Of a stretch of DNA of 64,000 bases, positions 21,069 to 36,853 are shown in pieces. The notes beneath the pieces are model-generated. The model worked only from the letters and a program-made list of their open reading frames with translations, was not told the DNA's origin and ran no database searches. The stretch lies in assembly GCF_003018115.1 (NCBI RefSeq), contig NZ_CP027457.1. The stretch is one strand, 5' to 3'. Every line of letters begins with the position of its first letter. Within the stretch, counting starts at the first letter, position 1. The DNA comes from Escherichia coli (GTDB lineage: Bacteria > Pseudomonadota > Gammaproteobacteria > Enterobacterales > Enterobacteriaceae). A program made the position numbers and the translations under genes.

Positions 21069-21310
21069 GATTAATCAAAATATTCAATATTTATATATTC
21101 AAATATTTATTCATTTCATATGTGAATACATTAACCAGCAGAATGCCTGTGTTCTAATTATTTCTAAAGATTTTTAATGAATGCTTATTGTCTGATACAC
21201 AAGAAATAACACTCTTTTTATCGTTAAAAAATGATATTTCACTTTGCCCACACCGTTAAAGTCACTGATAATGCGTCCGTTCGTAAATTCAAAATGGCGT
21301 AATCTAATAT

Positions 21311-22858: not shown

Positions 22859-23551
22859 CTAGTGATAACCACGCGCGGTCATAAAATCCGTAATCGCTTT
22901 TTCTGCATCAACCAACACCTGTTCCAGTGGCTGATTGGCATCGATATCAACCAGTTGTGCACCACCAAAGGTTAACTGTGGCGTTATGGCAATCTTCCTC
23001 GCCAGCGATTCCCGTTTATGGTCGGGTTTACGCGCGCAGGCCACGTCTAGATCGACATTGAGTTTGATGACCAGATCAGGCTTATGGCTCGCCATCCAGT
23101 GAAACGCTTTACGTTCCTGGCTTGCCAGCCATGAGACAAAACGACCACCTTCAACGTTAGGTGGGAACACCGTACCATCGTAAGCGCCAGGAATTTGGTC
23201 CTGAGGATAACGGTCGGTTAGAACAATTAACCCGCGACGACGACAGGCAAGCATATGACGAAAGCGCAGTAAGCGACGGGCGACAAACGCTGTAATTACC
23301 AGCGCCGGAACTGGTCCTGGCAATTTTTTTGCTGTTTTCACCTGATTTCGTTCAATTGTTTTATGTAAGGATTTTCCCATCAACGGTAATTTTGTCACTG
23401 CACGACCGACATTTCCGGCTTGTTTTCCTAAATGAACTCTTTCGGCAGCACCATATTTTTCGACAACGGTAATGAGATGTTCACACACCGTTGACTTGCC
23501 AGAACCATCGCTACCAATAACGGCAATTAATGGAGGTGTTATTGACTGCAT
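22859..23551 (-). CDS. yghT: P-loop NTPase/kinase-like protein (YghR/S/T paralog family)
   Basis: 230 aa; Walker [10 protein letters not shown]; DRYPQ motif; paralogous to the two downstream ORFs. Confidence 0.85.
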
Positions 23552-23724
23552 GAATATATCCTTAAATTTAAATATCCATCCAAAATATTTATTTGGTTAA
23601 TATGTTTTTATGAAAGCGTAATTCAGGTCAATGTCACAATTAACCATTGTCACAATAAGGTTGAACGGATATTCTGAGCACGGACCACGTAATATTCAAT
23701 ACATTATTTACTGCCGGGTTTTTC

Positions 23725-24438
23725 GTGAATCAACGTAATATGTCAATAATTAATTCCACGCCAGTGCGTGTTATTGCCATTGTAGGATGTGATGGTTCAG
23801 GTAAATCGACCCTCACGGCAAGCCTGGTAAATGAACTGGCAGCAAGAATGCCAACAGAACGCATTTATCTCGGGCAATCGTCCGGGCGAATTGGCGAATG
23901 GATTTCACAGCTCCCTGTTATTGGCGCACCTTTTGGGCGTTATCTGCGAAGTAAAGCGGCACATGTGCACGAAAAGCCCTCAACACCGCCTGGCAATATT
24001 ACTGCGCTGGTTATCTATCTGCTTTTCTGCTGGCGGGCGTACAAGTTTCGCAAAATGTTGTGTAGAAGCCAGCAAGGCCATCTGCTCATCACCGACCGCT
24101 ACCCGCAGGTTGAAGTGCCGGGTTTTCGCTTTGATGGCCCGCAATTGGCAAAAACCACGGGCGGTAACGGTTGGATAAAAATGTTAAGGCAGCGCGAGTT
24201 GAAGCTGTACCAATGGATGGCGTCTTATTTACCCGTATTGTTGATTCGTCTTGGCATTGATGAACAAACCGCGTTTGCGCGTAAACCTGACCACCAACTG
24301 GCAGCGTTACAGGAAAAAATCGCCGTTACGCCGCAATTGACATTCAATGGCGCAAAGATCCTTGAACTGGATGGTCGGCAACCAGCCGATGAAATTCTGC
24401 AAGCGTCACTACGCGCAATTCACGCCGCGCTTTCCTGA
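23725..24438 (+). CDS. yghS: P-loop NTPase/kinase-like protein (YghR/S/T paralog family)
   Basis: 237 aa from GTG start (alternative ATG at 23740); Walker A GCDGSGKST; DRYPQ; ARKPDH motif shared with paralogs. Confidence 0.85.
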   Translation: MNQRNMSIINSTPVRVIAIVGCDGSGKSTLTASLVNELAARMPTERIYLGQSSGRIGEWISQLPVIGAPFGRYLRSKAAHVHEKPSTPPGNITALVIYLLFCWRAYKFRKMLCRSQQGHLLITDRYPQVEVPGFRFDGPQLAKTTGGNGWIKMLRQRELKLYQWMASYLPVLLIRLGIDEQTAFARKPDHQLAALQEKIAVTPQLTFNGAKILELDGRQPADEILQASLRAIHAALS

Positions 24439-24469
24439 TCACCAAAATGGATAGGGGATGATTTAACGA

Positions 24470-25228
24470 ATGGATGCACTACAAACACAAACTGTTATTA
24501 GTACAACCGCGCCACAGCCCAACTACATTCCGGGGCTGATTGCGGTGGTCGGGTGTGATGGCACCGGTAAATCCACACTGACCACCGACCTAGTGAAATC
24601 GCTGCAACAACACTGGCAAACCGAGCGGCGCTATCTGGGGCTGCTCTCCGGCGAAGACGGCGACAAAATCAAACGATTGCCGTTGGTTGGCGTCTGGCTG
24701 GAACGGCGACTGGCGGCCAAATCCTCGAAAACCCAAAGCATGAAAACCAAATCTCCGGCGCTATGGGCGGCGGTGATTATGTACTGCTTCTCGCTGCGAA
24801 GAATGGCGAATCTACGCAAGGTTCAGCGACTGGCGCAAAGTGGCGTTCTGGTGGTCAGCGATCGCTTCCCGCAGGCTGAAATTTCGGGCTTTTATTATGA
24901 CGGACCGGGGATTGGCGTCGAACGTGCGACCGGGAAAATCAGCATGTTTCTGGCGCAGCGCGAACGGCGTTTATACCAACAAATGGCGCAATATCGCCCG
25001 GAATTAATTATTCGCCTGGGCATTGATATTGAGACTGCCATCTCCCGCAAGCCTGACCATGACTATGCCGAGCTGCAGGACAAAATCGGCGTCATGTCGA
25101 CGATTGGCTATAACGGCACAAAAATTCTTGAGATTGATTCCAGAGCGCCCTACAGCGAAGTGCTGGAACAGGCACAGAAGGCGGTTTCTCTGGTTGCCAT
25201 CGCTTCTGACCGCCGAAGTTTAACTTAA
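24470..25228 (+). CDS. yghR: P-loop NTPase/kinase-like protein (YghR/S/T paralog family)
   Basis: 252 aa; Walker A GCDGTGKST; DRFPQ; SRKPDH. Confidence 0.85.
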   Translation: MDALQTQTVISTTAPQPNYIPGLIAVVGCDGTGKSTLTTDLVKSLQQHWQTERRYLGLLSGEDGDKIKRLPLVGVWLERRLAAKSSKTQSMKTKSPALWAAVIMYCFSLRRMANLRKVQRLAQSGVLVVSDRFPQAEISGFYYDGPGIGVERATGKISMFLAQRERRLYQQMAQYRPELIIRLGIDIETAISRKPDHDYAELQDKIGVMSTIGYNGTKILEIDSRAPYSEVLEQAQKAVSLVAIASDRRSLT

Positions 25229-25273
25229 GGCTGGCGGGATACTTTTTACTATCAACGATAAGGTCAGGCTGAA

Positions 25274-26623
25274 TTGGCGGGTTTTAACATCAAACATTGG
25301 TTTGCAGATGGCGCGTTTCGCACCATTATTCGCAATAGCGCCTGGTTAGGCTCCAGTAATGTCGTGAGCGCCTTGCTGGGGCTGTTGGCGCTCTCGTGTG
25401 CCGGTAAAGGGATGACGCCCGCCATGTTTGGCGTACTGGTGATTGTGCAATCGTACGCCAAGTCGATCAGCGATTTTATTAAGTTTCAGACATGGCAGCT
25501 GGTGGTTCAGTACGGAACGCCAGCCTTGACCAACAATAATCCGCAGCAATTTCGCAATGTCGTCTCATTTTCCTTCTCGCTGGATATCGTCAGCGGCGCG
25601 GTGGCGATTGTCGGCGGCATTGCCTTACTGCCATTCCTTTCCCATTCATTAGGTCTGGATGACCAAAGCTTTTGGCTGGCGGCGCTGTATTGCACGCTCA
25701 TTCCTTCAATGGCTTCCTCCACGCCGACCGGCATTCTGCGTGCGGTAGATCGCTTTGATTTGATTGCTGTACAGCAGGCGACGAAACCTTTTCTGCGCGC
25801 AGCGGGGAGCGTCGCAGCCTGGTATTTTGACTTTGGTTTTGCGGGTTTTGTTATTGCCTGGTACGTGTCGAATCTGGTTGGCGGCACCATGTACTGGTGG
25901 TTTGCCGCGCGCGAATTACGCCGCAGAAATATCCATAACGCCTTCAAATTGAATCTGTTTGAGTCTGCCCGACACATTAAAGGCGCGTGGAGTTTTGTCT
26001 GGTCAACCAACATTGCCCACTCCATCTGGTCGGCGCGTAACTCGTGCAGCACAGTGTTGGTGGGGATCGTGTTAGGACCCGCTGCCGCCGGGTTATTTAA
26101 AATCGCCATGACATTCTTCGACGCCGCCGGAACGCCAGCGGGTTTGCTGGGTAAAAGTTTTTACCCAGAGGTGATGCGTTTAGATCCGCGCACCACCAGA
26201 CCGTGGTTGTTAGGCGTGAAGTCCGGTTTACTGGCGGGCGGAATCGGTATTCTGGTGGCGCTCGCGGTGTTGATCGTCGGCAAGCCGCTCATTTCGCTGG
26301 TATTTGGCGTTAAGTATCTCGAAGCGTATGACCTGATTCAGGTGATGCTGGGCGCAATTGTGATCTCGATGCTGGGCTTCCCGCAGGAGTCATTGCTATT
26401 GATGGCGGGAAAACAGCGCGCTTTTCTCGTGGCGCAAACCATCGCCTCAATCGGCTACATCGTATTGCTGTTCATGTTCTGTCATCTGTTTGGCGTGCTG
26501 GGGGCTGCATTTGCTTACTTCGTTGGGCAATGTCTGGATGTGGTGCTCTCGTTAATTCCAACCTTAAAGGCATTTTTTCAGCGCCATTCCTTGCTTTATA
26601 ACGCAGCCGGAGAGAAATCCTGA
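25274..26623 (+). CDS. yghQ: MOP/Wzx-like polytopic membrane flippase-family protein
   Basis: 449-codon hydrophobic ORF from TTG at 25274 (true start may be the internal Met at about 25412); recognised as YghQ-like; stop overlaps the next ORF start (ATGA). Confidence 0.8.
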   Translation: MAGFNIKHWFADGAFRTIIRNSAWLGSSNVVSALLGLLALSCAGKGMTPAMFGVLVIVQSYAKSISDFIKFQTWQLVVQYGTPALTNNNPQQFRNVVSFSFSLDIVSGAVAIVGGIALLPFLSHSLGLDDQSFWLAALYCTLIPSMASSTPTGILRAVDRFDLIAVQQATKPFLRAAGSVAAWYFDFGFAGFVIAWYVSNLVGGTMYWWFAARELRRRNIHNAFKLNLFESARHIKGAWSFVWSTNIAHSIWSARNSCSTVLVGIVLGPAAAGLFKIAMTFFDAAGTPAGLLGKSFYPEVMRLDPRTTRPWLLGVKSGLLAGGIGILVALAVLIVGKPLISLVFGVKYLEAYDLIQVMLGAIVISMLGFPQESLLLMAGKQRAFLVAQTIASIGYIVLLFMFCHLFGVLGAAFAYFVGQCLDVVLSLIPTLKAFFQRHSLLYNAAGEKS

Positions 26624-27447
26624 TGATGAGAAAATATTTCCCGCTTGAGGCGAGCGAGCGTCTATTTGTTGCGATTGAAGAAGATGATGTCGTTGATGCA
26701 CAGGTTAGTTTGCCGCCGACTATTGCACTAAGTTGTACCACCGAAATCATTCATGATAATTACGCGTTATGCCTGCAATTCTGGCTCAATGGCGTTAATC
26801 GTCAGGAATTACTGCGTTTAGTTCGCAAACAAGCCAAAGGCGATGAGCTGACTGCTGATGAGCGCAAACAATTTAAATACATGCGAGCGCGCTACAAGCA
26901 CCTGCGTTTTGCGCAACGGCTGTATTTAAAGAAGCATCAGGCCGGATTTTTATTCGGCAAAACGACCGTTTTTCTGGGACGTTTTCAGGACGGATTTCGT
27001 AACGGTAAGAAAAATATTGTGTCGTATTACGGCAACCTGTTACGAATTTATTTAAGCTCTCCGGTCTGGTCGTTGGTGAACTATTCATTACGCCATAGCC
27101 AGTTAGAAAGCGTAAGCGGTTTTATTGCCTATCGGCAAAAGCAAATGCATACCCTGAAAGAGATTATTGCCAAACCGCGACTAACCGGCAGGGAATTTCA
27201 TGATGTGCGAAAAATCATCAGCCAGCAGGTTTCTTATTACGACACCTTAAGATCGCTTGATCCTGAAAATAAAGAGGCGTTACAGATTTCCCGTTTCCTC
27301 GCCGCCATTAATGGCCTGATGGGGGATAAACACGACGACATGGTAGCGGATGATATGGAAAACCGCCAGTCGTATGATGCACCGGTGGCGCTGGATAGCG
27401 ATATTCGCCAGCGCTTAGAGCTGCTGATTTCGCGTTTTCCGCTATAA
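26623..27447 (+). CDS. hypothetical protein, basic, no recognisable motif
   Basis: 274-aa ORF translationally coupled to yghQ (ATGA overlap); no signal peptide or TM segment apparent. Confidence 0.6.
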   Translation: MMRKYFPLEASERLFVAIEEDDVVDAQVSLPPTIALSCTTEIIHDNYALCLQFWLNGVNRQELLRLVRKQAKGDELTADERKQFKYMRARYKHLRFAQRLYLKKHQAGFLFGKTTVFLGRFQDGFRNGKKNIVSYYGNLLRIYLSSPVWSLVNYSLRHSQLESVSGFIAYRQKQMHTLKEIIAKPRLTGREFHDVRKIISQQVSYYDTLRSLDPENKEALQISRFLAAINGLMGDKHDDMVADDMENRQSYDAPVALDSDIRQRLELLISRFPL

Positions 27448-27455
27448 CCGGAGCA

Positions 27456-28019
27456 ATGATGTCATCTCGTTTGATTATTGCGCTGATTATCATGCTCTTA
27501 GCCCCGGGTGTGCAGGCACACAATTTCGTCACTGGCAAAACGGTTACCCCTGTTTATATTCAGGAAGGCGGCGAGCTGCTTCTGAATAGCGACGACGAAA
27601 TTCACTACCAAAAGTGGAACAGCACACAATTGGCGGGAAAAGTCCGCATTATCCAGTATATCGCCGGGCGTAAGTCGGCGAAGAAAAAGAACTCACTGTT
27701 AATTAAAGCGGTTGAAGCGGCAAACTTTCCGCAGGATCGTTTTCAGCCCACCACCATTGTGAACACCGATGATGCCATCTTTGGTACTGGCTATTTTGTT
27801 GTTGGCAAAATCGAAAAAAATAAACGCCGCTATCCGTGGGCGCAATTCGTTATCGACGGCAATGGACAGGGACGCGTTGCCTGGCGCTTGCCGGAGCAGA
27901 GTTCAACCATTCTGGTGCTGGATAAAGCCGGGCAAATTCAGTGGGCAAAGGACGGCAGCCTGACGCCGGAAGAGGTAGATCATGTCATTGCGCTGGCGCA
28001 GAAACTGATCAATGAATAA
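27456..28019 (+). CDS. secreted/periplasmic protein, YtfJ-family-like
   Basis: 187 aa; N-terminal signal peptide (MMSSRLIIALIIMLLAPGVQA/HN); resembles E. coli YtfJ as recalled (TTIVNTDDAI...YPW..F..D.NG, QWAKDG.LTPEEV). Confidence 0.6.
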   Translation: MMSSRLIIALIIMLLAPGVQAHNFVTGKTVTPVYIQEGGELLLNSDDEIHYQKWNSTQLAGKVRIIQYIAGRKSAKKKNSLLIKAVEAANFPQDRFQPTTIVNTDDAIFGTGYFVVGKIEKNKRRYPWAQFVIDGNGQGRVAWRLPEQSSTILVLDKAGQIQWAKDGSLTPEEVDHVIALAQKLINE

Positions 28020-28049
28020 AAAATTCAAAGGATTGAGGGCGTTAGTGAG

Positions 28050-29120
28050 ATGAAGCTGGTTGAACACTACATCATGCGTGGTACGCGCCGTCTGGTGCTG
28101 ATTATCGTCGGTTTTCTGATCTTTATTTTCGCCAGCTACTCCGCACAGCGTTATCTGACCGAAGCGGCAAATGGGACATTAGCTCTTGATGTTGTGCTGG
28201 ATATCGTTTTCTACAAAGTGCTGATTGCACTGGAGATGTTGTTACCTGTTGGTCTGTATGTGTCAGTTGGCGTGACGCTAGGGCAGATGTATACCGACTC
28301 GGAAATTACCGCTATCTCTGCGGCGGGGGGCAGTCCGGGACGCTTGTACAAAGCCGTTCTTTATCTGGCGATACCGCTAAGTATTTTTGTCACCCTTCTG
28401 TCGATGTATGGTCGTCCGTGGGCTTATGCGCAGATTTATCAACTGGAGCAGCAGTCGCAGTCGGAGCTGGATGTTCGCCAGTTGCGGGCAAAGAAATTTA
28501 ACACTAACGATAACGGACGAATGATCCTTTCGCAGACGGTTGATCAGGATAATAATCGCCTGACTGACGCGCTGATTTATACTTCTACTGCCAATCGAAC
28601 CCGCATTTTCCGCGCCCGTTCGGTTGATGTGGTTGACCCATCACCCGAGAAACCGACCGTTATGTTGCACAACGGCACTGCCTATCTTCTCGATCATCAG
28701 GGTCGTGACGACAACGAACAGATCTACCGTAATCTGCAATTACATCTGAATCCGCTGGATCAAAGCCCTAACGTCAAACGCAAAGCAAAATCGGTCACGG
28801 AGCTGGCGCGCTCCGCCTTTCCTGCCGATCATGCCGAACTGCAATGGCGACAAAGCCGTGGCCTGACAGCATTGTTGATGGCGCTGCTGGCCATTTCATT
28901 AAGTCGGGTAAAACCGCGGCAGGGGCGATTTTCAACGTTATTGCCACTGACGTTGCTGTTTATTGCCATTTTTTATGGCGGCGACGTCTGCCGTACGCTG
29001 GTGGCTAACGGCGCGATTCCTCTCATTCCTGGTTTGTGGTTAGTGCCCGGACTCATGCTAATGGGCCTGCTGATGCTGGTTGCACGCGACTTCACTTTGC
29101 TGCAGAAATTTTCCCGATGA
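28050..29120 (+). CDS. LptF-like permease (YjgP/YjgQ family)
   Basis: 356 aa; N-terminal TM bundle then soluble domain then C-terminal TMs; LGQMYTDSEITAISAAG matches the LptF signature region as recalled (LGKLYTESEITVMHACG). Confidence 0.75.
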   Translation: MKLVEHYIMRGTRRLVLIIVGFLIFIFASYSAQRYLTEAANGTLALDVVLDIVFYKVLIALEMLLPVGLYVSVGVTLGQMYTDSEITAISAAGGSPGRLYKAVLYLAIPLSIFVTLLSMYGRPWAYAQIYQLEQQSQSELDVRQLRAKKFNTNDNGRMILSQTVDQDNNRLTDALIYTSTANRTRIFRARSVDVVDPSPEKPTVMLHNGTAYLLDHQGRDDNEQIYRNLQLHLNPLDQSPNVKRKAKSVTELARSAFPADHAELQWRQSRGLTALLMALLAISLSRVKPRQGRFSTLLPLTLLFIAIFYGGDVCRTLVANGAIPLIPGLWLVPGLMLMGLLMLVARDFTLLQKFSR

Positions 29121-30196
29121 ATGTTTTCAGTCGCTATTTAATCCGTCATCTCTTTCTCGGTTTTGCCGCCGCCGCAGGGCTATTGCTGCCGCTTTTTACC
29201 ACCTTCAACCTGATTAACGAACTGGATGATGTCAGCCCGGGCGGTTATCGCTGGACTCAGGCGGTGCTGGTGGTGCTAATGACCTTACCGCGCACACTGG
29301 TCGAACTTTCGCCGTTTATCGCCTTATTGGGAGGGATTGTCGGCCTGGGGCAGTTATCGAAAAACAGTGAGCTTACCGCCATTCGCAGCATGGGGTTTTC
29401 TATCTTCCGTATTGCACTGGTGGCGCTGGTTGCCGGGATATTGTGGACTGTTTCGTTAGGCGCGATAGATGAGTGGGTAGCGTCGCCGTTGCAGCAACAG
29501 GCGCTGCAAATCAAATCGACCGCCACTGCGTTGGGGGAGGACGATGATATTACCGGCAATATGCTTTGGGCCAGGCGCGGTAATGAATTTGTAACGGTGA
29601 AATCGCTGAACGAGCAGGGCCAGCCGGTGGGCGTGGAGATATTTCATTATCGCGACGATCTCTCGCTCGAATCCTACATTTATGCACGCAGTGCCACCAT
29701 TGAAGACGACAAAACGTGGATCCTGCATGGTGTGAATCATAAAAAATGGCTGAATGGCAAAGAAACGCTGGAAACATTAGATAATCTTGCCTGGCAATCG
29801 GCCTTCACCAGTATGGATCTTGAAGAGTTATCAATGCCGGGCAATACTTTTTCTGTCCGTCAGCTTAATCATTACATCCATTATTTGCAGGAAACCGGGC
29901 AACCCAGCAGCGAATACCGCCTTGCACTGTGGGAAAAACTGGGGCAACCCATCCTGACCCTGGCGATGATTTTGCTGGCTGTGCCGTTTACCTTTAGTGC
30001 CCCGCGCTCGCCAGGGATGGGTAGCCGTCTCGCTGTAGGTGTCATCGTTGGCTTACTCACCTGGATCAGCTATCAAATCATGGTCAATCTGGGATTGCTA
30101 TTTGCGTTGAGCGCACCTGTTACCGCGCTCGGTTTACCGATAGCGTTTGTGCTGGTGGCGTTGAGCCTGGTGTATTGGTATGACAGACAACATTAA
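29117..30196 (+). CDS. LptG-like permease (YjgP/YjgQ family)
   Basis: 359 aa from ATG at 29117 (MNVFSRYLIRH...), overlapping upstream stop by 4 nt; NSELTAIRSMGFS resembles LptG RSELVVMQASGF. Confidence 0.75.
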   Translation: MNVFSRYLIRHLFLGFAAAAGLLLPLFTTFNLINELDDVSPGGYRWTQAVLVVLMTLPRTLVELSPFIALLGGIVGLGQLSKNSELTAIRSMGFSIFRIALVALVAGILWTVSLGAIDEWVASPLQQQALQIKSTATALGEDDDITGNMLWARRGNEFVTVKSLNEQGQPVGVEIFHYRDDLSLESYIYARSATIEDDKTWILHGVNHKKWLNGKETLETLDNLAWQSAFTSMDLEELSMPGNTFSVRQLNHYIHYLQETGQPSSEYRLALWEKLGQPILTLAMILLAVPFTFSAPRSPGMGSRLAVGVIVGLLTWISYQIMVNLGLLFALSAPVTALGLPIAFVLVALSLVYWYDRQH

Positions 30197-30230
30197 ACCC
30201 GCCGTGGCGCAACACCACAGCGGGCTCACA

Positions 30231-31403
30231 TTACTGCTTCAGAGTAGCGAACGCTTGAATGATGGCATCAATTTGCTCACGACTGTGGGCAGCGTTTACG
30301 CTACAGCGCAGCAGCGTGATGCCTGCAGGCGCGGCAGGTGGCAGGATAAGATTCACATAAACGCCCAGCGAAATAAGCTCGCGCCAGATGCGTAAACCTT
30401 CCTCTTTCGAACCGATTATTACCGGCACTACCGGGCTAATATGTGAACTTAACTCATAACCCAGTTTTTGCAGACCGTCATACAGATGGTTGGCGTTATC
30501 CATCAGCTTTTGCCGCAGCTCTGGTTGTGTGGCAATGGTTCTTAACGACGAGCGCACGGTCGCAATGCAGGACGGAGAAGGAGAGGCGGTAAAAATATAC
30601 GGGCGGCTGCCGTAGCGCAGCACTTCCATCGCTTCCGAACCGACAGCAAAACCGCCAATCGAGGCCAGACTTTTACTGAAGGTACCAACGATAATATCCA
30701 CATCATCTTCAACGCCAACGGCTTCAGCCAGTCCGCGCCCCGTTGCGCCTAACACGCCAAACGAATGCGCTTCATCGACAATCAAATAACCACCGAGACG
30801 ACGTTTGATATCAACAATTTCCGCCAGCGGCGCAACGTCACCGAGCATGCTGTAGATGCCCTCAACGATGATAATCGCCTCTTTCGCCCGTTCACCGAGG
30901 CGAACCATGCGCCGTTCCAGATCTTTAGCATCGTTATGGCGGAAACGAATAATTTCCGCGCCACCGAGAGAACAGGCGTCATAAATACTGGCGTGGCTGT
31001 CGGCATCCAGTAACACCACGGCGTTATGGTCGGCAAGTGCGCTGATGACGCCTAAATTAGCGGTATAACCGGTTGAAAAAACGATAGCGGTAGGGCGATT
31101 GAAAAACTCGGCAATCTCTTTCTCTAACGCCAGGTGCGGCGCATAACTGCCGTTTGCCATACGAGAACCGGTGGTGCCGGTGCCTTGGGCCGCTAACGCT
31201 GTCTGACCTTCGGCGATGGCATCATGATTAAAGGTTAAACCGAGGTAATTATTGGTCCCGGCCAGAATCACTTTTTTATTGCCGATCCGGCCTTCGGTGG
31301 CGGAATACACTTCATCAATACAGGTGCCAAACGGTGTTAACCCATTGTCACTAAATTGCAGTCGCTCGCCAGCAAGGCGCGCATATTTATCATATAGCCC
31401 CAT
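30231..31403 (-). CDS. alpha-oxoamine synthase family PLP enzyme, serine palmitoyltransferase-like
   Basis: 390 aa; class-II aminotransferase fold with PLP-lysine motif GTFSKSLASIGGF; encoded immediately downstream of a dedicated ACP. Confidence 0.8.
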   Translation of the reverse strand: MGLYDKYARLAGERLQFSDNGLTPFGTCIDEVYSATEGRIGNKKVILAGTNNYLGLTFNHDAIAEGQTALAAQGTGTTGSRMANGSYAPHLALEKEIAEFFNRPTAIVFSTGYTANLGVISALADHNAVVLLDADSHASIYDACSLGGAEIIRFRHNDAKDLERRMVRLGERAKEAIIIVEGIYSMLGDVAPLAEIVDIKRRLGGYLIVDEAHSFGVLGATGRGLAEAVGVEDDVDIIVGTFSKSLASIGGFAVGSEAMEVLRYGSRPYIFTASPSPSCIATVRSSLRTIATQPELRQKLMDNANHLYDGLQKLGYELSSHISPVVPVIIGSKEEGLRIWRELISLGVYVNLILPPAAPAGITLLRCSVNAAHSREQIDAIIQAFATLKQ

Positions 31404-31651
31404 TATTTATTCTCCAGCCATGGAAGTAGAGTTTCCATTAATTGCGCAGGGGTTTTGACATCCAGCAGAATATTAATAGGAATGGAAATATCGAATCTGT
31501 CTTCCAGCATCATTAAGAGATCCATCACTTTGATCGACTCCAGGCCAAGATCGTTGACGAGATCGCTGTCGGGCTTAATTTCCACACCGTTTTCGACCAA
31601 ATCCTGTAAACAGGAAAGGATGTAATCCATTACTATTTCACGATTTACCAT
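31403..31651 (-). CDS. acyl carrier protein
   Basis: 82 aa, acidic; phosphopantetheine-site motif DLGLESI; shares a boundary nucleotide with the downstream synthase gene. Confidence 0.75.
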   Translation of the reverse strand: MVNREIVMDYILSCLQDLVENGVEIKPDSDLVNDLGLESIKVMDLLMMLEDRFDISIPINILLDVKTPAQLMETLLPWLENK

Positions 31652-31682
31652 AGAAACGTTAACACACCTTTAAACAAGACAA

Positions 31683-32597
31683 TCAAAATAGCCCGTTGCG
31701 TAATGCGTGTTCCAGGCTAATCCCGGGAAACCAATTAATATCTTCAGAAATACGGTTATTACTTGCCGACCAGTCGGCGTGGGTTAATTCACGAATTTTC
31801 GAGCGGGTCAGCATAGGTTCTTTACCTGCCAGGCGGCTCAACGCGGTACTGATATCCGCAAGGCAGGTGAGTACCGGCAGAGGAATGCCAACCATTCGCA
31901 CGGAACCACAACGGGCGTCGGCGGCAAGTTGCTGTACGCGTTGCCAGTCATAGCCGCCAGCGACGCCATCGCATAATTCATAGGTTTGCGTCTGTACAGT
32001 TTCGGCGCTTAACCACTGACCCACTGCTTGCGCGAAATCGGTGACGTGCAGGAAAGAGAGCTGTGTATCTGGCGCACCAAGTCGTGGCAGCAGGCCGCGC
32101 AGCATCCAGTCAAACAGCGGTTTTAACTCTTTATCGCCGGGGCCATACACGGCTGTCGGGCGAAAAACGCCCAGCGTAATTTTGTCAGCCATTGCAGTCA
32201 GCCGTTGTTCGGCGACGTATTTGGAATTTGCGTACCAGGAGAGTTCGGGATGGCGCGCCGCCAGCGAAGAGATAAACAGAAAACGTTGGCAAAAACCGCT
32301 CTCTTTTGCCGCCTGCATCAGGCGCAGACTGCCGTCAACGTTACAGCGGGTGAAAATCTCTTCTTTGTGCCCGCGCACTTGTCCGGCGCAATGAACCACC
32401 GCGCTGGCTCCGGCAACCAGTTCGCTAAGCGAATGTGTATCTTCCAGCGAACCGCGCACCCAGGTGAGATTATCATTGACGTGAGCGCGGGCAGTACGCG
32501 TCAATGCGCGAACGTGAAAGCCGCGGGCGAGCAGGTTATTGATAATATATTTACCGATAAACCCGGTAGCGCCCGTCACCGCGACAGTTTGATTCAT
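31683..32597 (-). CDS. NAD(P)-dependent epimerase/dehydratase-family SDR (candidate keto-reductase)
   Basis: 304 aa; N-terminal Rossmann motif VTGATGFIGK; start overlaps stop of upstream acyl-ACP synthetase (ATGA). Confidence 0.8.
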   Translation of the reverse strand: MNQTVAVTGATGFIGKYIINNLLARGFHVRALTRTARAHVNDNLTWVRGSLEDTHSLSELVAGASAVVHCAGQVRGHKEEIFTRCNVDGSLRLMQAAKESGFCQRFLFISSLAARHPELSWYANSKYVAEQRLTAMADKITLGVFRPTAVYGPGDKELKPLFDWMLRGLLPRLGAPDTQLSFLHVTDFAQAVGQWLSAETVQTQTYELCDGVAGGYDWQRVQQLAADARCGSVRMVGIPLPVLTCLADISTALSRLAGKEPMLTRSKIRELTHADWSASNNRISEDINWFPGISLEHALRNGLF

Positions 32598-34327
32598 GCC
32601 AGGGATTCCTGCACATGAAGGCTTGCAGCATAAGCCTTCTGATAACGTTTTTTCGCTTCCGCACGGGCAGGCTTGCCGGAGGACGTTCGGGGAATGCTGT
32701 GGGGCGGCAACAGATCGATAGCCGCGGTCACGCCAAATTCGCTTTGGATCCGTGCTGCCAGCGCGTGGATAAGCTGCCCGCGACGTTCTTCATCGCTGAT
32801 CCGACACTGGATCTGCAAAATGATTTTTTCCTGGGCGGTAACAAAAGCAATCGCATCGCCAGAATGAATTTCCGGTTCCTGTTCCGCTATATATTCAATA
32901 TCCTGCGGCCAGATATTACGGCCACGAATAATAATCAGATCTTTAATGCGTCCGGTGACATACAGATAACCGTCCAGCAGATAACCGAGGTCGCCAGTGT
33001 CTAACCAGCCCGTCGCGGCAATCTCGTCTTGCGAAGCCTGGTCGCCAAAGTAACCGCTCATCAGACTGGGACCGGAGATGCAAATATGGCCTACCACACG
33101 TTCCGCGACCGGCATACCTGCTTCATTGCGGATTTCAATACCATGTTCCGGCAACGCTTTGCCGCAGTTGACGAAAGTCGATACGGCGCGTGTCTCTGCA
33201 CCCGGCGCGACGGCTTTACCCTGATATTCGAGGATGTCGCGATCCACTTCGTTAACCACAACCCCGGAGGCTTCATCAGAGAAGCTGACAGCCAGCGCAT
33301 TTTCTGCCAGTCCGTAGCACGGCATGAAAGTTTTATTGTCAAAGTTAACCTGACGGAAACATTCAGCGAATTGATGGAGTTGTTCTGCGGAGATGGGTTC
33401 TGCACCAATACCAGCGACGCGCCAGCAGGAAAGATCCAGTTCAGCGAGATCTTTTTCATTCACGCGGCGCTGGCACAATTCATAGCCAAACGGCGGCGCA
33501 ACGGAAACGGTGCCGCGATTTTTACTGATCAATTTAAGCCATTGCAGAGGACGCATGGCAAAATCCTGAGTGCGCAAATAATCTACTGAAAGTTGCGTGG
33601 CGACGGGGGTCAGGAGAAAGCCGACCAGTCCCATATCATGGTAGAAAGGCAGCCAGGAGACGCAGCGGTCGCCAGGGCGTAATTTAATGCCATCGTGGCT
33701 TATGGCGCGTAGATTAGCCATCACTTCGCGGTGAGTGATAATGACGCCACGGGGAAAACGGGTGCTGCCGGAGGTGTACTGGAGGTAGGCGATATCGTTC
33801 GGAACTGGACGCTGGAGCGCAACATCGGCTTCCGGTAATGCCTTAAACCAGGCGTGGCTTAAAACATGTAATTCGGGGTTGTTGTTATGCGTCGCGGCAT
33901 TGACCAGCGGTAACCACTCATCACCAGTGATAATGGCTGCGGGCTGGCAACTTGCCAGTAAACCCTGCAGTTTGGCGCTCCAGGAATCCCGCTGACCGAC
34001 GCCCATTGGAATCGCCAATGGTACGGCAACTAATCCAGCATACTGACAGGCAAAAAATGCCTCGACAAACCCGCTACTGGTTTCGGCAATCAGCGCCACG
34101 CGATCGCCTTTTTTCAGGTTTAGCGATAACAACCGCTTCGCACCAGCTTCGGCACGCGCTTTTAACGTCTGATATTCCAGTTGATCTTCAAGTTGGCAAC
34201 GTCTGTCATAAAAATTCATTCCAGCGCTACTCAGAGCGGCGTAGTCCAAAGCATCAACCAGCGTTGGAAAATCGGCATAGCGCATAGGTAGGGAATGCGT
34301 AAAGATTTTATTAGACATATACACCAC
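32594..34327 (-). CDS. fatty acyl-AMP ligase / acyl-ACP synthetase (adenylate-forming enzyme)
   Basis: 577 aa; AMP-binding core motif YTSGSTRFPRGV and downstream GYG/TGD adenylation motifs; first gene of a 4-gene minus-strand operon. Confidence 0.8.
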   Translation of the reverse strand: MVYMSNKIFTHSLPMRYADFPTLVDALDYAALSSAGMNFYDRRCQLEDQLEYQTLKARAEAGAKRLLSLNLKKGDRVALIAETSSGFVEAFFACQYAGLVAVPLAIPMGVGQRDSWSAKLQGLLASCQPAAIITGDEWLPLVNAATHNNNPELHVLSHAWFKALPEADVALQRPVPNDIAYLQYTSGSTRFPRGVIITHREVMANLRAISHDGIKLRPGDRCVSWLPFYHDMGLVGFLLTPVATQLSVDYLRTQDFAMRPLQWLKLISKNRGTVSVAPPFGYELCQRRVNEKDLAELDLSCWRVAGIGAEPISAEQLHQFAECFRQVNFDNKTFMPCYGLAENALAVSFSDEASGVVVNEVDRDILEYQGKAVAPGAETRAVSTFVNCGKALPEHGIEIRNEAGMPVAERVVGHICISGPSLMSGYFGDQASQDEIAATGWLDTGDLGYLLDGYLYVTGRIKDLIIIRGRNIWPQDIEYIAEQEPEIHSGDAIAFVTAQEKIILQIQCRISDEERRGQLIHALAARIQSEFGVTAAIDLLPPHSIPRTSSGKPARAEAKKRYQKAYAASLHVQESLA

Positions 34328-34689
34328 GAAAAAATTGGATATCCAAAATAAAATGACAATAATGCGGTGGATTATATAGGCATAAAAGATAAATGAGATA
34401 GTATTTTCATCAGTGTGAAAATGAACATTGATTTAAATAATGAGTTTAAGTTTTTTTGTTTTTATTGTGAATGATATTTAATTTATGAATATATTAAGAA
34501 GAAGCCTTGTCCGGTCGCCTTAAATCGACAAAAGGCATTGTGGCGCTTCTGTGTAGTCGCTGACCTTATCGTAATCATTAATAAATACTATTTATTCGTC
34601 GTTTGTATTCATTGGGTTGATTATTAAGGTGCCGTTCGTTGCTGTTGCAACCTGTTTGTCACCGTTAATTATTTGTTACCCACAGAACT
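34328..34689. promoter_or_regulatory. AT-rich divergent control region (lipid operon / yghO)
   Basis: 362-bp intergenic region of markedly low GC between divergently oriented genes. Confidence 0.45.
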
Positions 34690-35832
34690 ATGGAATGCGA
34701 TCTGCTGATGATTAAAATTGAAAAAGTAATAAATAAAAACGACTTAAAGGCATTTATCGCTTTTCCGTCATCACTTTATCCCGACGATCCAAACTGGATA
34801 CCCCCTTTATTCATTGAACGCAACGAGCATTTGTCTGCGAAAAATCCGGGGACGGACCATATCATCTGGCAGGCGTGGGTGGCAAAAAAAGCGGGGCAGA
34901 TAGTTGGGCGTATTACCGCGCAAATAGATACCTTGCACCGCGAGCGTTACGGCAAAGATACCGGTCATTTCGGCATGATTGACGCCATTGATGATCCGCA
35001 GGTTTTTGCCGCGTTGTTTGGCGCAGCGGAAGCGTGGTTGAAGTCCCAAGGTGCAAGTAAGATCAGCGGTCCTTTCAGCCTGAATATCAATCAGGAAAGC
35101 GGATTACTGATTGAAGGTTTTGACACACCACCCTGTGCGATGATGCCACACGGCAAACCGTGGTATGCCGCGCATATTGAACAACTGGGTTATCACAAAG
35201 GCATTGATTTACTGGCGTGGTGGATGCAGCGAACCGATCTCACTTTCTCTCCGGCGCTAAAAAAACTGATGGATCAGGTGCGCAAAAAGGTGACCATTCG
35301 CTGCATCAATCGCCAGCGGTTTGCCGAAGAGATGCAGATCCTGCGTGAGATTTTCAACTCTGGCTGGCAACACAACTGGGGATTTGTGCCGTTTACCGAA
35401 CATGAATTCGCGACCATGGGCGATCAACTTAAATATCTGGTGCCGGACGATATGATCTACATCGCTGAGATTGATTCTGCACCCTGCGCGTTTATTGTCG
35501 GCTTGCCGAACATCAACGAGGCGATTGCCGATCTGAACGGATCGCTCTTTCCCTTCGGCTGGGCAAAATTGCTGTGGCGTTTGAAAGTCAGCGGTGTGCG
35601 AACTGCGCGAGTACCGCTGATGGGCGTGCGCGACGAGTATCAGTTCAGCCGCATCGGCCCGGTGATTGCGCTGTTATTGATTGAAGCCTTACGCGATCCG
35701 TTTGCCCGCCGGAAGATCGATGCGCTGGAGATGTCATGGATCCTCGAAACCAATACAGGCATGAATAACATGCTGGAACGCATTGGGGCGGAGCCGTACA
35801 AGCGTTACCGATTGTATGAAAAGCAGATTTAA
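34690..35832 (+). CDS. yghO: GNAT-superfamily-like acyltransferase (full-length YghO)
   Basis: 380-codon ORF (start possibly at internal Met, 34708); position corresponds to yghO next to glcC; acyltransferase assignment is tentative. Confidence 0.65.
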   Translation: MECDLLMIKIEKVINKNDLKAFIAFPSSLYPDDPNWIPPLFIERNEHLSAKNPGTDHIIWQAWVAKKAGQIVGRITAQIDTLHRERYGKDTGHFGMIDAIDDPQVFAALFGAAEAWLKSQGASKISGPFSLNINQESGLLIEGFDTPPCAMMPHGKPWYAAHIEQLGYHKGIDLLAWWMQRTDLTFSPALKKLMDQVRKKVTIRCINRQRFAEEMQILREIFNSGWQHNWGFVPFTEHEFATMGDQLKYLVPDDMIYIAEIDSAPCAFIVGLPNINEAIADLNGSLFPFGWAKLLWRLKVSGVRTARVPLMGVRDEYQFSRIGPVIALLLIEALRDPFARRKIDALEMSWILETNTGMNNMLERIGAEPYKRYRLYEKQI

Positions 35833-36603: not shown

Positions 36604-36853
36604 TCCCGGACCTCGTGCACAGGTAGGACCAATTTTTCTGTACTTAACTCGCAAAACACGCACATCACGTAAGTGATTATGTTACATCAATTTAACATTG
36701 AGTTAACCAAGGCAAGGTCACAGAGCTGGAAAAAAAATGGTCTGACCGGTAGCTAAAGAGATAGACGAAAACGAAAAGCCCGCTTAATAACTGTTCACAG
36801 AAGCAGCGCGCAAAAATCAGCTGCCACACAACACAACTAAGCGAAGCCTACTC
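36604..36853. promoter_or_regulatory. glcC / glcDEFGBA divergent promoter region
   Basis: 250-bp intergenic region between divergent regulator and operon; sites not resolved. Confidence 0.45.

Follow-up and report, generated by a model that had tools for sequence, protein, structure and literature searches.

The σ70 core promoter is defined by a −35 element (TTGACA) and a −10 element (TATAAT) separated by a 17-bp spacer. Among the repeated sites that are recognized by regulators, the Pho box has TGTCA as its core and consists of two CTGTCAT-type 7-mers arranged in 11-bp tandem units, while operators of the phage 434 type (Cro/CI, Xre family) have the form ACAA-N6-TTGT. The half-site consensus of CRP is TGTGA/TCACA (PMC12871828), and its complete site, TGTGA-N6-TCACA, is a 22-bp dyad.

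Here, we investigated a direct repeat in the spacer between the divergent genes yghT and yghS in a 64-kb stretch of the Escherichia coli genome (the window). The spacer comprises 173 bp (23552–23724; 30.6% GC) and runs from the yghT ATG at 23551 on the minus strand to the yghS GTG at 23725, a start that follows the RefSeq annotation and is GTG or ATG in all relatives (ATG in Pseudocitrobacter). A comparison of 501 bases of the window gave 100% identity with E. coli strain F9792. A sequence-only reading had noticed two identical 9-mers 7 bp apart in this AT-rich spacer and had proposed them as an operator for a regulator of both directions. The description of the DNA proved correct in both sequence and position: TGTCACAAT occurs twice on the plus strand, with the gap TAACCAT between the copies and a start-to-start distance of 16 bp, in the local sequence ggtcaaTGTCACAATtaaccatTGTCACAATaagg. 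The window contains no further exact copy, and the repeat is also present in K-12 MG1655 (NC_000913.3, 3134050–3134026). In a longer alignment the two units read CAATGTCACAAT and CATTGTCACAAT, identical at 11/12 positions.

Several symmetries are superimposed on the repeat (Table 1). Each copy is nearly palindromic in its context (AATGTcACAAT for copy 1 and ATTGTcACAAT for copy 2), and the 3′ end of copy 1 together with the 5′ end of copy 2 forms the arms of the inverted repeat ACAAT-N5-ATTGT. TGTCACA is symmetric about its central C, so that the pair of 9-mers can equally be read as a 23-bp dyad with 8/9 matching arms.

Table 1. Features of the yghT/yghS spacer and the two flanking genes. Positions refer to the window, identity is the mean pairwise identity per column, and distances marked ~ are relative to the predicted yghS start.
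Feature	Position	Strand	Identity	Remarks
yghT	22859..23551	−		P-loop protein paralogous to the yghS product; divergently transcribed
Whole spacer			0.64	Background 0.60–0.64
Copy 1 of TGTCACAAT	23632..23640	+	0.57–0.62	~−51 to −43; at spacer background
5′ TGT of copy 1			0.44	
CACAAT of copy 1			0.71	
CACAATTA			0.75	Rank 40 of 166 windows
Inverted repeat ACAAT-N5-ATTGT	23636..23650	.		Direct reading; centre 23643, ~−40
Bases between the dyad arms	23643–23645		0.33–0.45	
Perfect 11-bp palindrome ATTGT-C-ACAAT around copy 2	23646..23656	.		
ATTGTCAC	23646–23653		1.0	Invariant in all aligned lineages
Predicted P1 −35, TTGTCA	23647..23652	+	1.0	Consensus scan; 5/6 to TTGACA
Copy 2 of TGTCACAAT	23648..23656	+	0.90	~−35 to −27; overlaps the −35 hexamer
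Predicted P1 −10, TATTCT	23670..23675	+	0.94–0.96	4/6 to TATAAT; 17 bp downstream of TTGTCA
P2 −35 partner, TTCTGA	23672–23677	+		
P2 −10 remnant, TTCAAT	23695..23700	+	0.91 (block)	TACAAT in other genera
yghS	23725..24438	+		P-loop protein, distantly dTMP kinase-like; first gene of the yghS-yghR-yghQ… operon

Neither the direct repeat nor the palindrome nor the dyad exceeds what chance would give. Exact 9-mer direct repeats within 30 bp were found in 3.9% of dinucleotide-preserving shuffles of the spacer and in 13.9% when any distance was allowed, perfect 5+5 inverted repeats occurred in 92% of the shuffled spacers, and an 8/9 dyad in 31%. The real window contains 13 close 9-mer repeats, corresponding to 17 nine-mer pairs versus ~8.4 pairs in shuffles. 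Any function must therefore be argued from position and conservation. One of the 13, AATATTTAT twice at 21086–21110, likewise has its copies 16 bp apart and lies ~200 bp upstream of pitB, an illustration that repeats of this kind are frequent in AT-rich spacers.

The arrangement of yghQ-yghR-yghS opposite yghT was found in Escherichia species including E. albertii, two Citrobacter species, Hafnia, Pseudocitrobacter, Shimwellia, Pluralibacter, Erwinia, Klebsiella, Serratia, Mangrovibacter, and Sodalis, as well as in four lineages recovered from sequencing-run assemblies. In nine of the lineages the spacer is 171–173 bp long (slightly longer in Shimwellia) and can be aligned almost without gaps, and conservation was scored as the mean pairwise identity per alignment column across eight lineages, with E. 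albertii left out. Conservation of the repeat as a pair in the orthologous spacers, a test that had been set beforehand, was not observed, as copy 1 scored 0.62 versus a background of 0.64; one of the copies is nevertheless conserved well above this same background, namely copy 2 at 0.90. Copy 2 is strongly kept in 8–9 related lineages from Escherichia, Citrobacter, Hafnia, Pseudocitrobacter, and Shimwellia. Conservation in the spacer is highest at ATTGTCAC (1.0), ATATTCTGA (~0.95), and AATAT-CAA (0.91), and the invariance of the first extends to A23646 and C23653, one base on either side of the hexamer TTGTCA.

At the aligned position of copy 1, E. albertii and E. whittamii have TGCCACAAT, Hafnia has AGCCACAAT, C. 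freundii AACGACAAT, C. amalonaticus AACGCTAAT, a Citrobacter-like lineage (L027) ACCACAAT, Pseudocitrobacter GCTGACATT, and Shimwellia AGTCACAAA. The 11-bp palindrome around copy 2 takes the form ATTGTCACAAC in Citrobacter and Hafnia (10/11), with 9/11 positions in Pseudocitrobacter and 8/11 in Shimwellia. Neither copy is recognizable at the aligned position in Pluralibacter, Erwinia, Klebsiella, Serratia, Mangrovibacter, or Sodalis. The exact duplication is specific to Escherichia and probably coincidental.

Within E. coli, 4501 of 4684 genomes (96%) share one and the same 48-mer across the two copies, compared with 27% and 66% for the 48-mers on either side. This near-invariance would fit a constraint on both copies within the species. 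The E. coli variants that were sampled have either a change at 23629, outside both 9-mers, or an IS1 insertion beside the repeat. In E. coli PCP06171, the IS1 element directly adjoins copy 1 (~23629) and replaces the yghT side of the spacer, with both 9-mers and the yghS promoter kept despite the insertion.

A consensus scan of positions 23400–23900 returned one promoter-like site only, TTGTCA-17-TATTCT on the plus strand with 9/12 matching bases, which we refer to as P1. In addition, all −35/−10 combinations in eight orthologous spacers were scored with a simple position weight matrix, for which the base frequencies were those of classical E. coli promoter compilations. The P1 pair ranked first on the yghS strand in all eight spacers and at the same aligned position, with a score of 9.2 in each species and at most 8.8 for the runner-up; the Shimwellia version reads TTGTCA-16-TATCCT. 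The third conserved block of the spacer, (T/C)AATAT(A/T)CAA at 23690–23699, would be explained by a second, overlapping tandem promoter (P2) that has the form TTCTGA-17-TACAAT in Citrobacter, Hafnia, and Pseudocitrobacter and TTGAAC-16-TACAAT in Klebsiella, Serratia, and Sodalis. The P2 −10 element is degenerate in E. coli, with the critical A at position 2 lost by the change of TACAAT to TTCAAT, and P1 would be the main yghS promoter in Escherichia as judged from these sequences. Transcription starts of yghS or yghT had no entry in the Cappable-seq, ROSE, and E. coli/Klebsiella start-site paper supplements that were searched.

We propose that copy 2 is part of the core σ70 promoter of the yghS-yghR-yghQ… operon, with TTGTCA as the −35 hexamer. 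Together with TATTCT and the 17-bp spacer between them, this hexamer would direct transcription from a start at ~23680–23684, ~43 nt before the yghS GTG, and copy 2 would be conserved because it overlaps the −35 hexamer of a conserved promoter. Copy 1 as a whole would lack cross-genus constraint, and its identity to copy 2 may be due to chance or to an old small duplication in an AT-rich spacer. At most, copy 1 might provide an upstream contact through CACAATTA, either as a site for the α-subunit (UP-like) or as one half of ACAAT-N5-ATTGT. We assign a probability of roughly 55% to this reading, in which copy 2 is the core-promoter −35 of yghS and the identity of copy 1 is a mere echo within the Escherichia lineage. 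The sequence, its statistics, the conservation pattern, and the conserved promoter prediction were directly observed; the start site, the use of σ70, and the lack of any regulator dedicated to the two sites are inferred from them, and P1 itself is most likely an ordinary, previously unannotated σ70 promoter as predicted from its hexamers.

Like known σ70 core promoters, the predicted P1 combines −35 and −10 hexamers (TTGTCA and TATTCT) that are kept across genera together with their spacing, and it precedes the leading gene of an operon. It differs from the standard case in that conservation reaches beyond the −35 hexamer and in that the relatives have the overlapping tandem P2, the E. coli version of which is degenerate. 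An uncharacterized, H-NS-silenced operon thereby gains a likely promoter position at 23647–23675, equivalent to 3134035–3134007 in K-12 (NC_000913.3), and the example illustrates that exact repeats in divergent spacers, however striking, are not necessarily operators.

What has been published on yghS, yghT, yghO, yghQ, and yghR was, in the literature that was searched, confined to knockout lists, H-NS/SlyA expression data, and a FlhDC peak. yghS is included in the H-NS regulon list and is up 3.1-fold upon SlyA overexpression (PMC5797941). A weak FlhDC gSELEX peak has been assigned to the yghT/yghS spacer, with the proposed box inside yghT and off the repeat. The best promoter candidates on the yghT strand of E. 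coli, TTGACC-18-AAACAT and a second one read by eye, TTAACC-18-GATATT, are weak and lie 40–60 bp further towards yghT than the repeat. In Citrobacter and Hafnia, GTGACA, the reverse complement within copy 2, is a possible −35 element of a divergent promoter, but E. coli lacks the corresponding −10. The repeat is tied to yghT by nothing.

The two words may alternatively belong to an operator that overlaps the promoter, in which a dimeric helix-turn-helix regulator would bind ACAAT-N5-ATTGT, centred near −40 and extended in E. coli to TGTCACAAT-N5-ATTGTCACA (8/9 symmetric), and would act as a repressor occluding the −35 or as a class II activator of yghS; copy 2 could then also be the −35. We regard such an operator as possible, if doubtful. 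The arms are complete (5/5) in E. coli, E. albertii, C. freundii, Hafnia, and the Citrobacter-like lineage and keep 3–4/5 bases in the other lineages, while the three central bases vary among genera (N5 being TAACC, TAGGC, TACCC, TAGTC, TAGAT, TAATT, or GAGTC), and kept arms around a variable centre are as expected of a dimer-binding site. The score of CACAATTA over the background (0.75 versus 0.64), the extra invariant base that flanks the −35 hexamer at either end, and the near-invariance of the segment within E. coli are consistent with this, and as H-NS and SlyA are known to regulate yghS, some protein may bind at the site. However, the right arm is fixed anyway as the −35 box, so that no covariation can be scored, the left arm ranks no higher than the top quarter of all windows and is reduced to CTAAT (3/5 kept) in C. 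amalonaticus, and inverted repeats with 5+5 arms are present in nearly all shuffled spacers. Moreover, the window holds no second site, the nearby gene products that were scanned include no cognate regulator, and we found no report of binding in the literature. The more specific proposal, that the 23-bp dyad TGTCACAAT-N5-ATTGTCACA is the operator of a candidate regulator gating the yghS-yghR-yghQ-lptF/G-like operon of a cryptic sphingolipid-type lipid island, appears unlikely; if true, it would mean that E. coli has sharpened the site into two full palindromes.

As to the operator that the sequence-only reading had suggested for both directions, its location in regulatory DNA is upheld, and the evidence favours a core-promoter element over a two-copy operator serving both genes. 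A two-site operator, with a protomer or a dimer on each 9-mer and control over yghS as well as yghT, is improbable. It would account for two exact and nearly palindromic copies in a divergent spacer, both of them invariant in the sampled E. coli genomes, and for the recurrence of a CACAA or GTCAC word at a distance of 16 bp in Hafnia, the Citrobacter-like lineage, and Shimwellia. Against this stand a copy 1 that scores at the background, with a 5′ half that is unconserved even within the genus, a period of 16 bp, i.e., ~1.5 helical turns, which puts the copies on opposite helix faces as opposed to the 10–11 bp of known direct-repeat binders, and a repeat that lies within chance, has no further copy in the window, and is located ~65–90 bp upstream of candidate yghT promoters that even at their best are weak and do not keep their position among species. 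We find it just as hard to credit that neither copy is functional and that the pair arose by chance or slippage in a silenced, AT-rich, horizontally acquired spacer, with its conservation reflecting shared ancestry only. The chance statistics permit this, the locus is H-NS-silenced in K-12, and the island around it is decaying in many strains (IS5 in K-12, IS1 beside copy 1 in one strain, and a stop in the acyl-AMP ligase gene), but ATTGTCAC and TATTCT are (nearly) invariant across genera in spacers that otherwise average an identity of 0.6, and the P1 hexamers keep a spacing of 16–17 bp that neutral decay does not predict.

Recognition by a known global regulator with a TGTCA- or TCACA-like half-site, such as PhoB or CRP, is very improbable. 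Each copy does contain TGTCA and a perfect CRP half-site, TCACA, and pitB, which adjoins yghT, is presumably Pho-regulated. As in a Pho box, the repeats are direct, have a TGTCA core, and lie in place of or over the −35 region. The period is 16 bp instead of 11 bp, though, and the second adjacent 11-bp unit is absent, the unit that follows copy 2 (AGGTTGAACGG) matching at 3/11 positions. For CRP, direct reading showed that the half-site expected at a distance of six bases has at most 2/5 matches for either copy. Neither yghS nor yghT occurs in the main text of the papers found, a CRP footprint table included, and the literature yielded no PhoB data for the yghT/yghS spacer.

Several other classes of sites were compared with the repeat and rejected. 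An OmpR/PhoB-type direct-repeat operator is ruled out by the 16-bp period versus 10–11 bp on the same helix face, and the two repeats are not both conserved (copy 1 at 0.62 versus 0.64, its TGT at 0.44); a CRP 22-bp dyad is ruled out by the missing N6 partner half-site at either copy. The SlyA site TTA-N6-TAA has no match to the repeat by eye. Also by eye, the MarA/SoxS/Rob box, ArcA, NarL, the DnaA box, and GntR-type dyads either miss conserved positions of the repeat or need bases that differ among species, as do RcsAB, σE, σ32, and σ54 on the conserved downstream block. The operators of the phage 434 type resemble the site in their outer ACAA…TTGT arms, unconserved centre, and overlap with a promoter, but here the arms are separated by N7, one base more, and there is neither an Xre-type gene nearby nor an array of operators.

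The motif was not found elsewhere in the 64-kb window, including the other divergent spacer of the surrounding island (34287–34689, between yghO and the acyl-AMP ligase gene), and no recognizable DNA-binding domain of a cognate regulator was detected among the island proteins scanned. In these scans, YghO and a 274-aa hypothetical protein had no family match. Rfam covariance models did not match either, the hits being at chance level with 19–22 bits versus gathering thresholds of 50–91. When the repeat sequence was looked for in the full text of the literature, the hits were confined to primers and unrelated sites, such as a CRP site at wza/yegH and a Salmonella SoxS site, which share a few letters with the repeat and belong to other loci.

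Further symmetric or repeated elements were observed in these spacers. Over the position of the E. coli P1 −10 and P2 −35 elements (23671–23686), there are perfect 16-bp palindromes in Shimwellia (ATCCTGAATTCAGGAT) and Sodalis (ATCTTGAACCCAAGAT); E. coli has lost the right arm of this palindrome, which as an operator candidate is superior to the E. coli repeat. Upstream of yghS in Erwinia persicina, three direct repeats of TAACCGCA/TAACCTCA follow each other with a 10-bp period (GTTAACCGCACGTAACCGCAAATAACCTCAG), a geometry shared with response-regulator sites. In E. coli, a long-range inverted repeat (11/13) connects AATATCCATCCAA at 23571–23583 with TTGAACGGATATT at 23661–23673, and its arms place GGATATT-type, −10-like words symmetrically before the two divergent genes.

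The island itself (22859–35832), of more interest than the repeat, is intact in this strain, in contrast to K-12, where IS5 has truncated it. One side comprises yghT, yghS-yghR-yghQ (flippase-like), the gene for the 274-aa hypothetical protein, a YtfJ-like protein, and LptF/LptG paralogues; on the converging side are spt, an ACP, an SDR reductase, and a fatty acyl-AMP ligase with an internal stop, with yghO next to it. The spt product was identified as serine palmitoyltransferase by an NCBIfam equivalog model (600 bits versus a cutoff of 500). In Klebsiella, Serratia, and Mangrovibacter, yghT directly adjoins the spt operon. The island looks like a cluster for the synthesis and export of a sphingolipid-type envelope lipid, and a defined promoter with a short list of bases to mutate could help to switch on this cryptic cluster or to find its regulator. 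glcA is annotated as frameshifted in this strain (L015, 5385–7066; ~43.5–45.2 kb in the window), which together with the internal stop in the acyl-AMP ligase gene points to gene decay on both sides of the island. The glcC/glcD divergent spacer contains a perfect palindrome, TCAAT-TTAAC-ATTGA, at 36687–36701.
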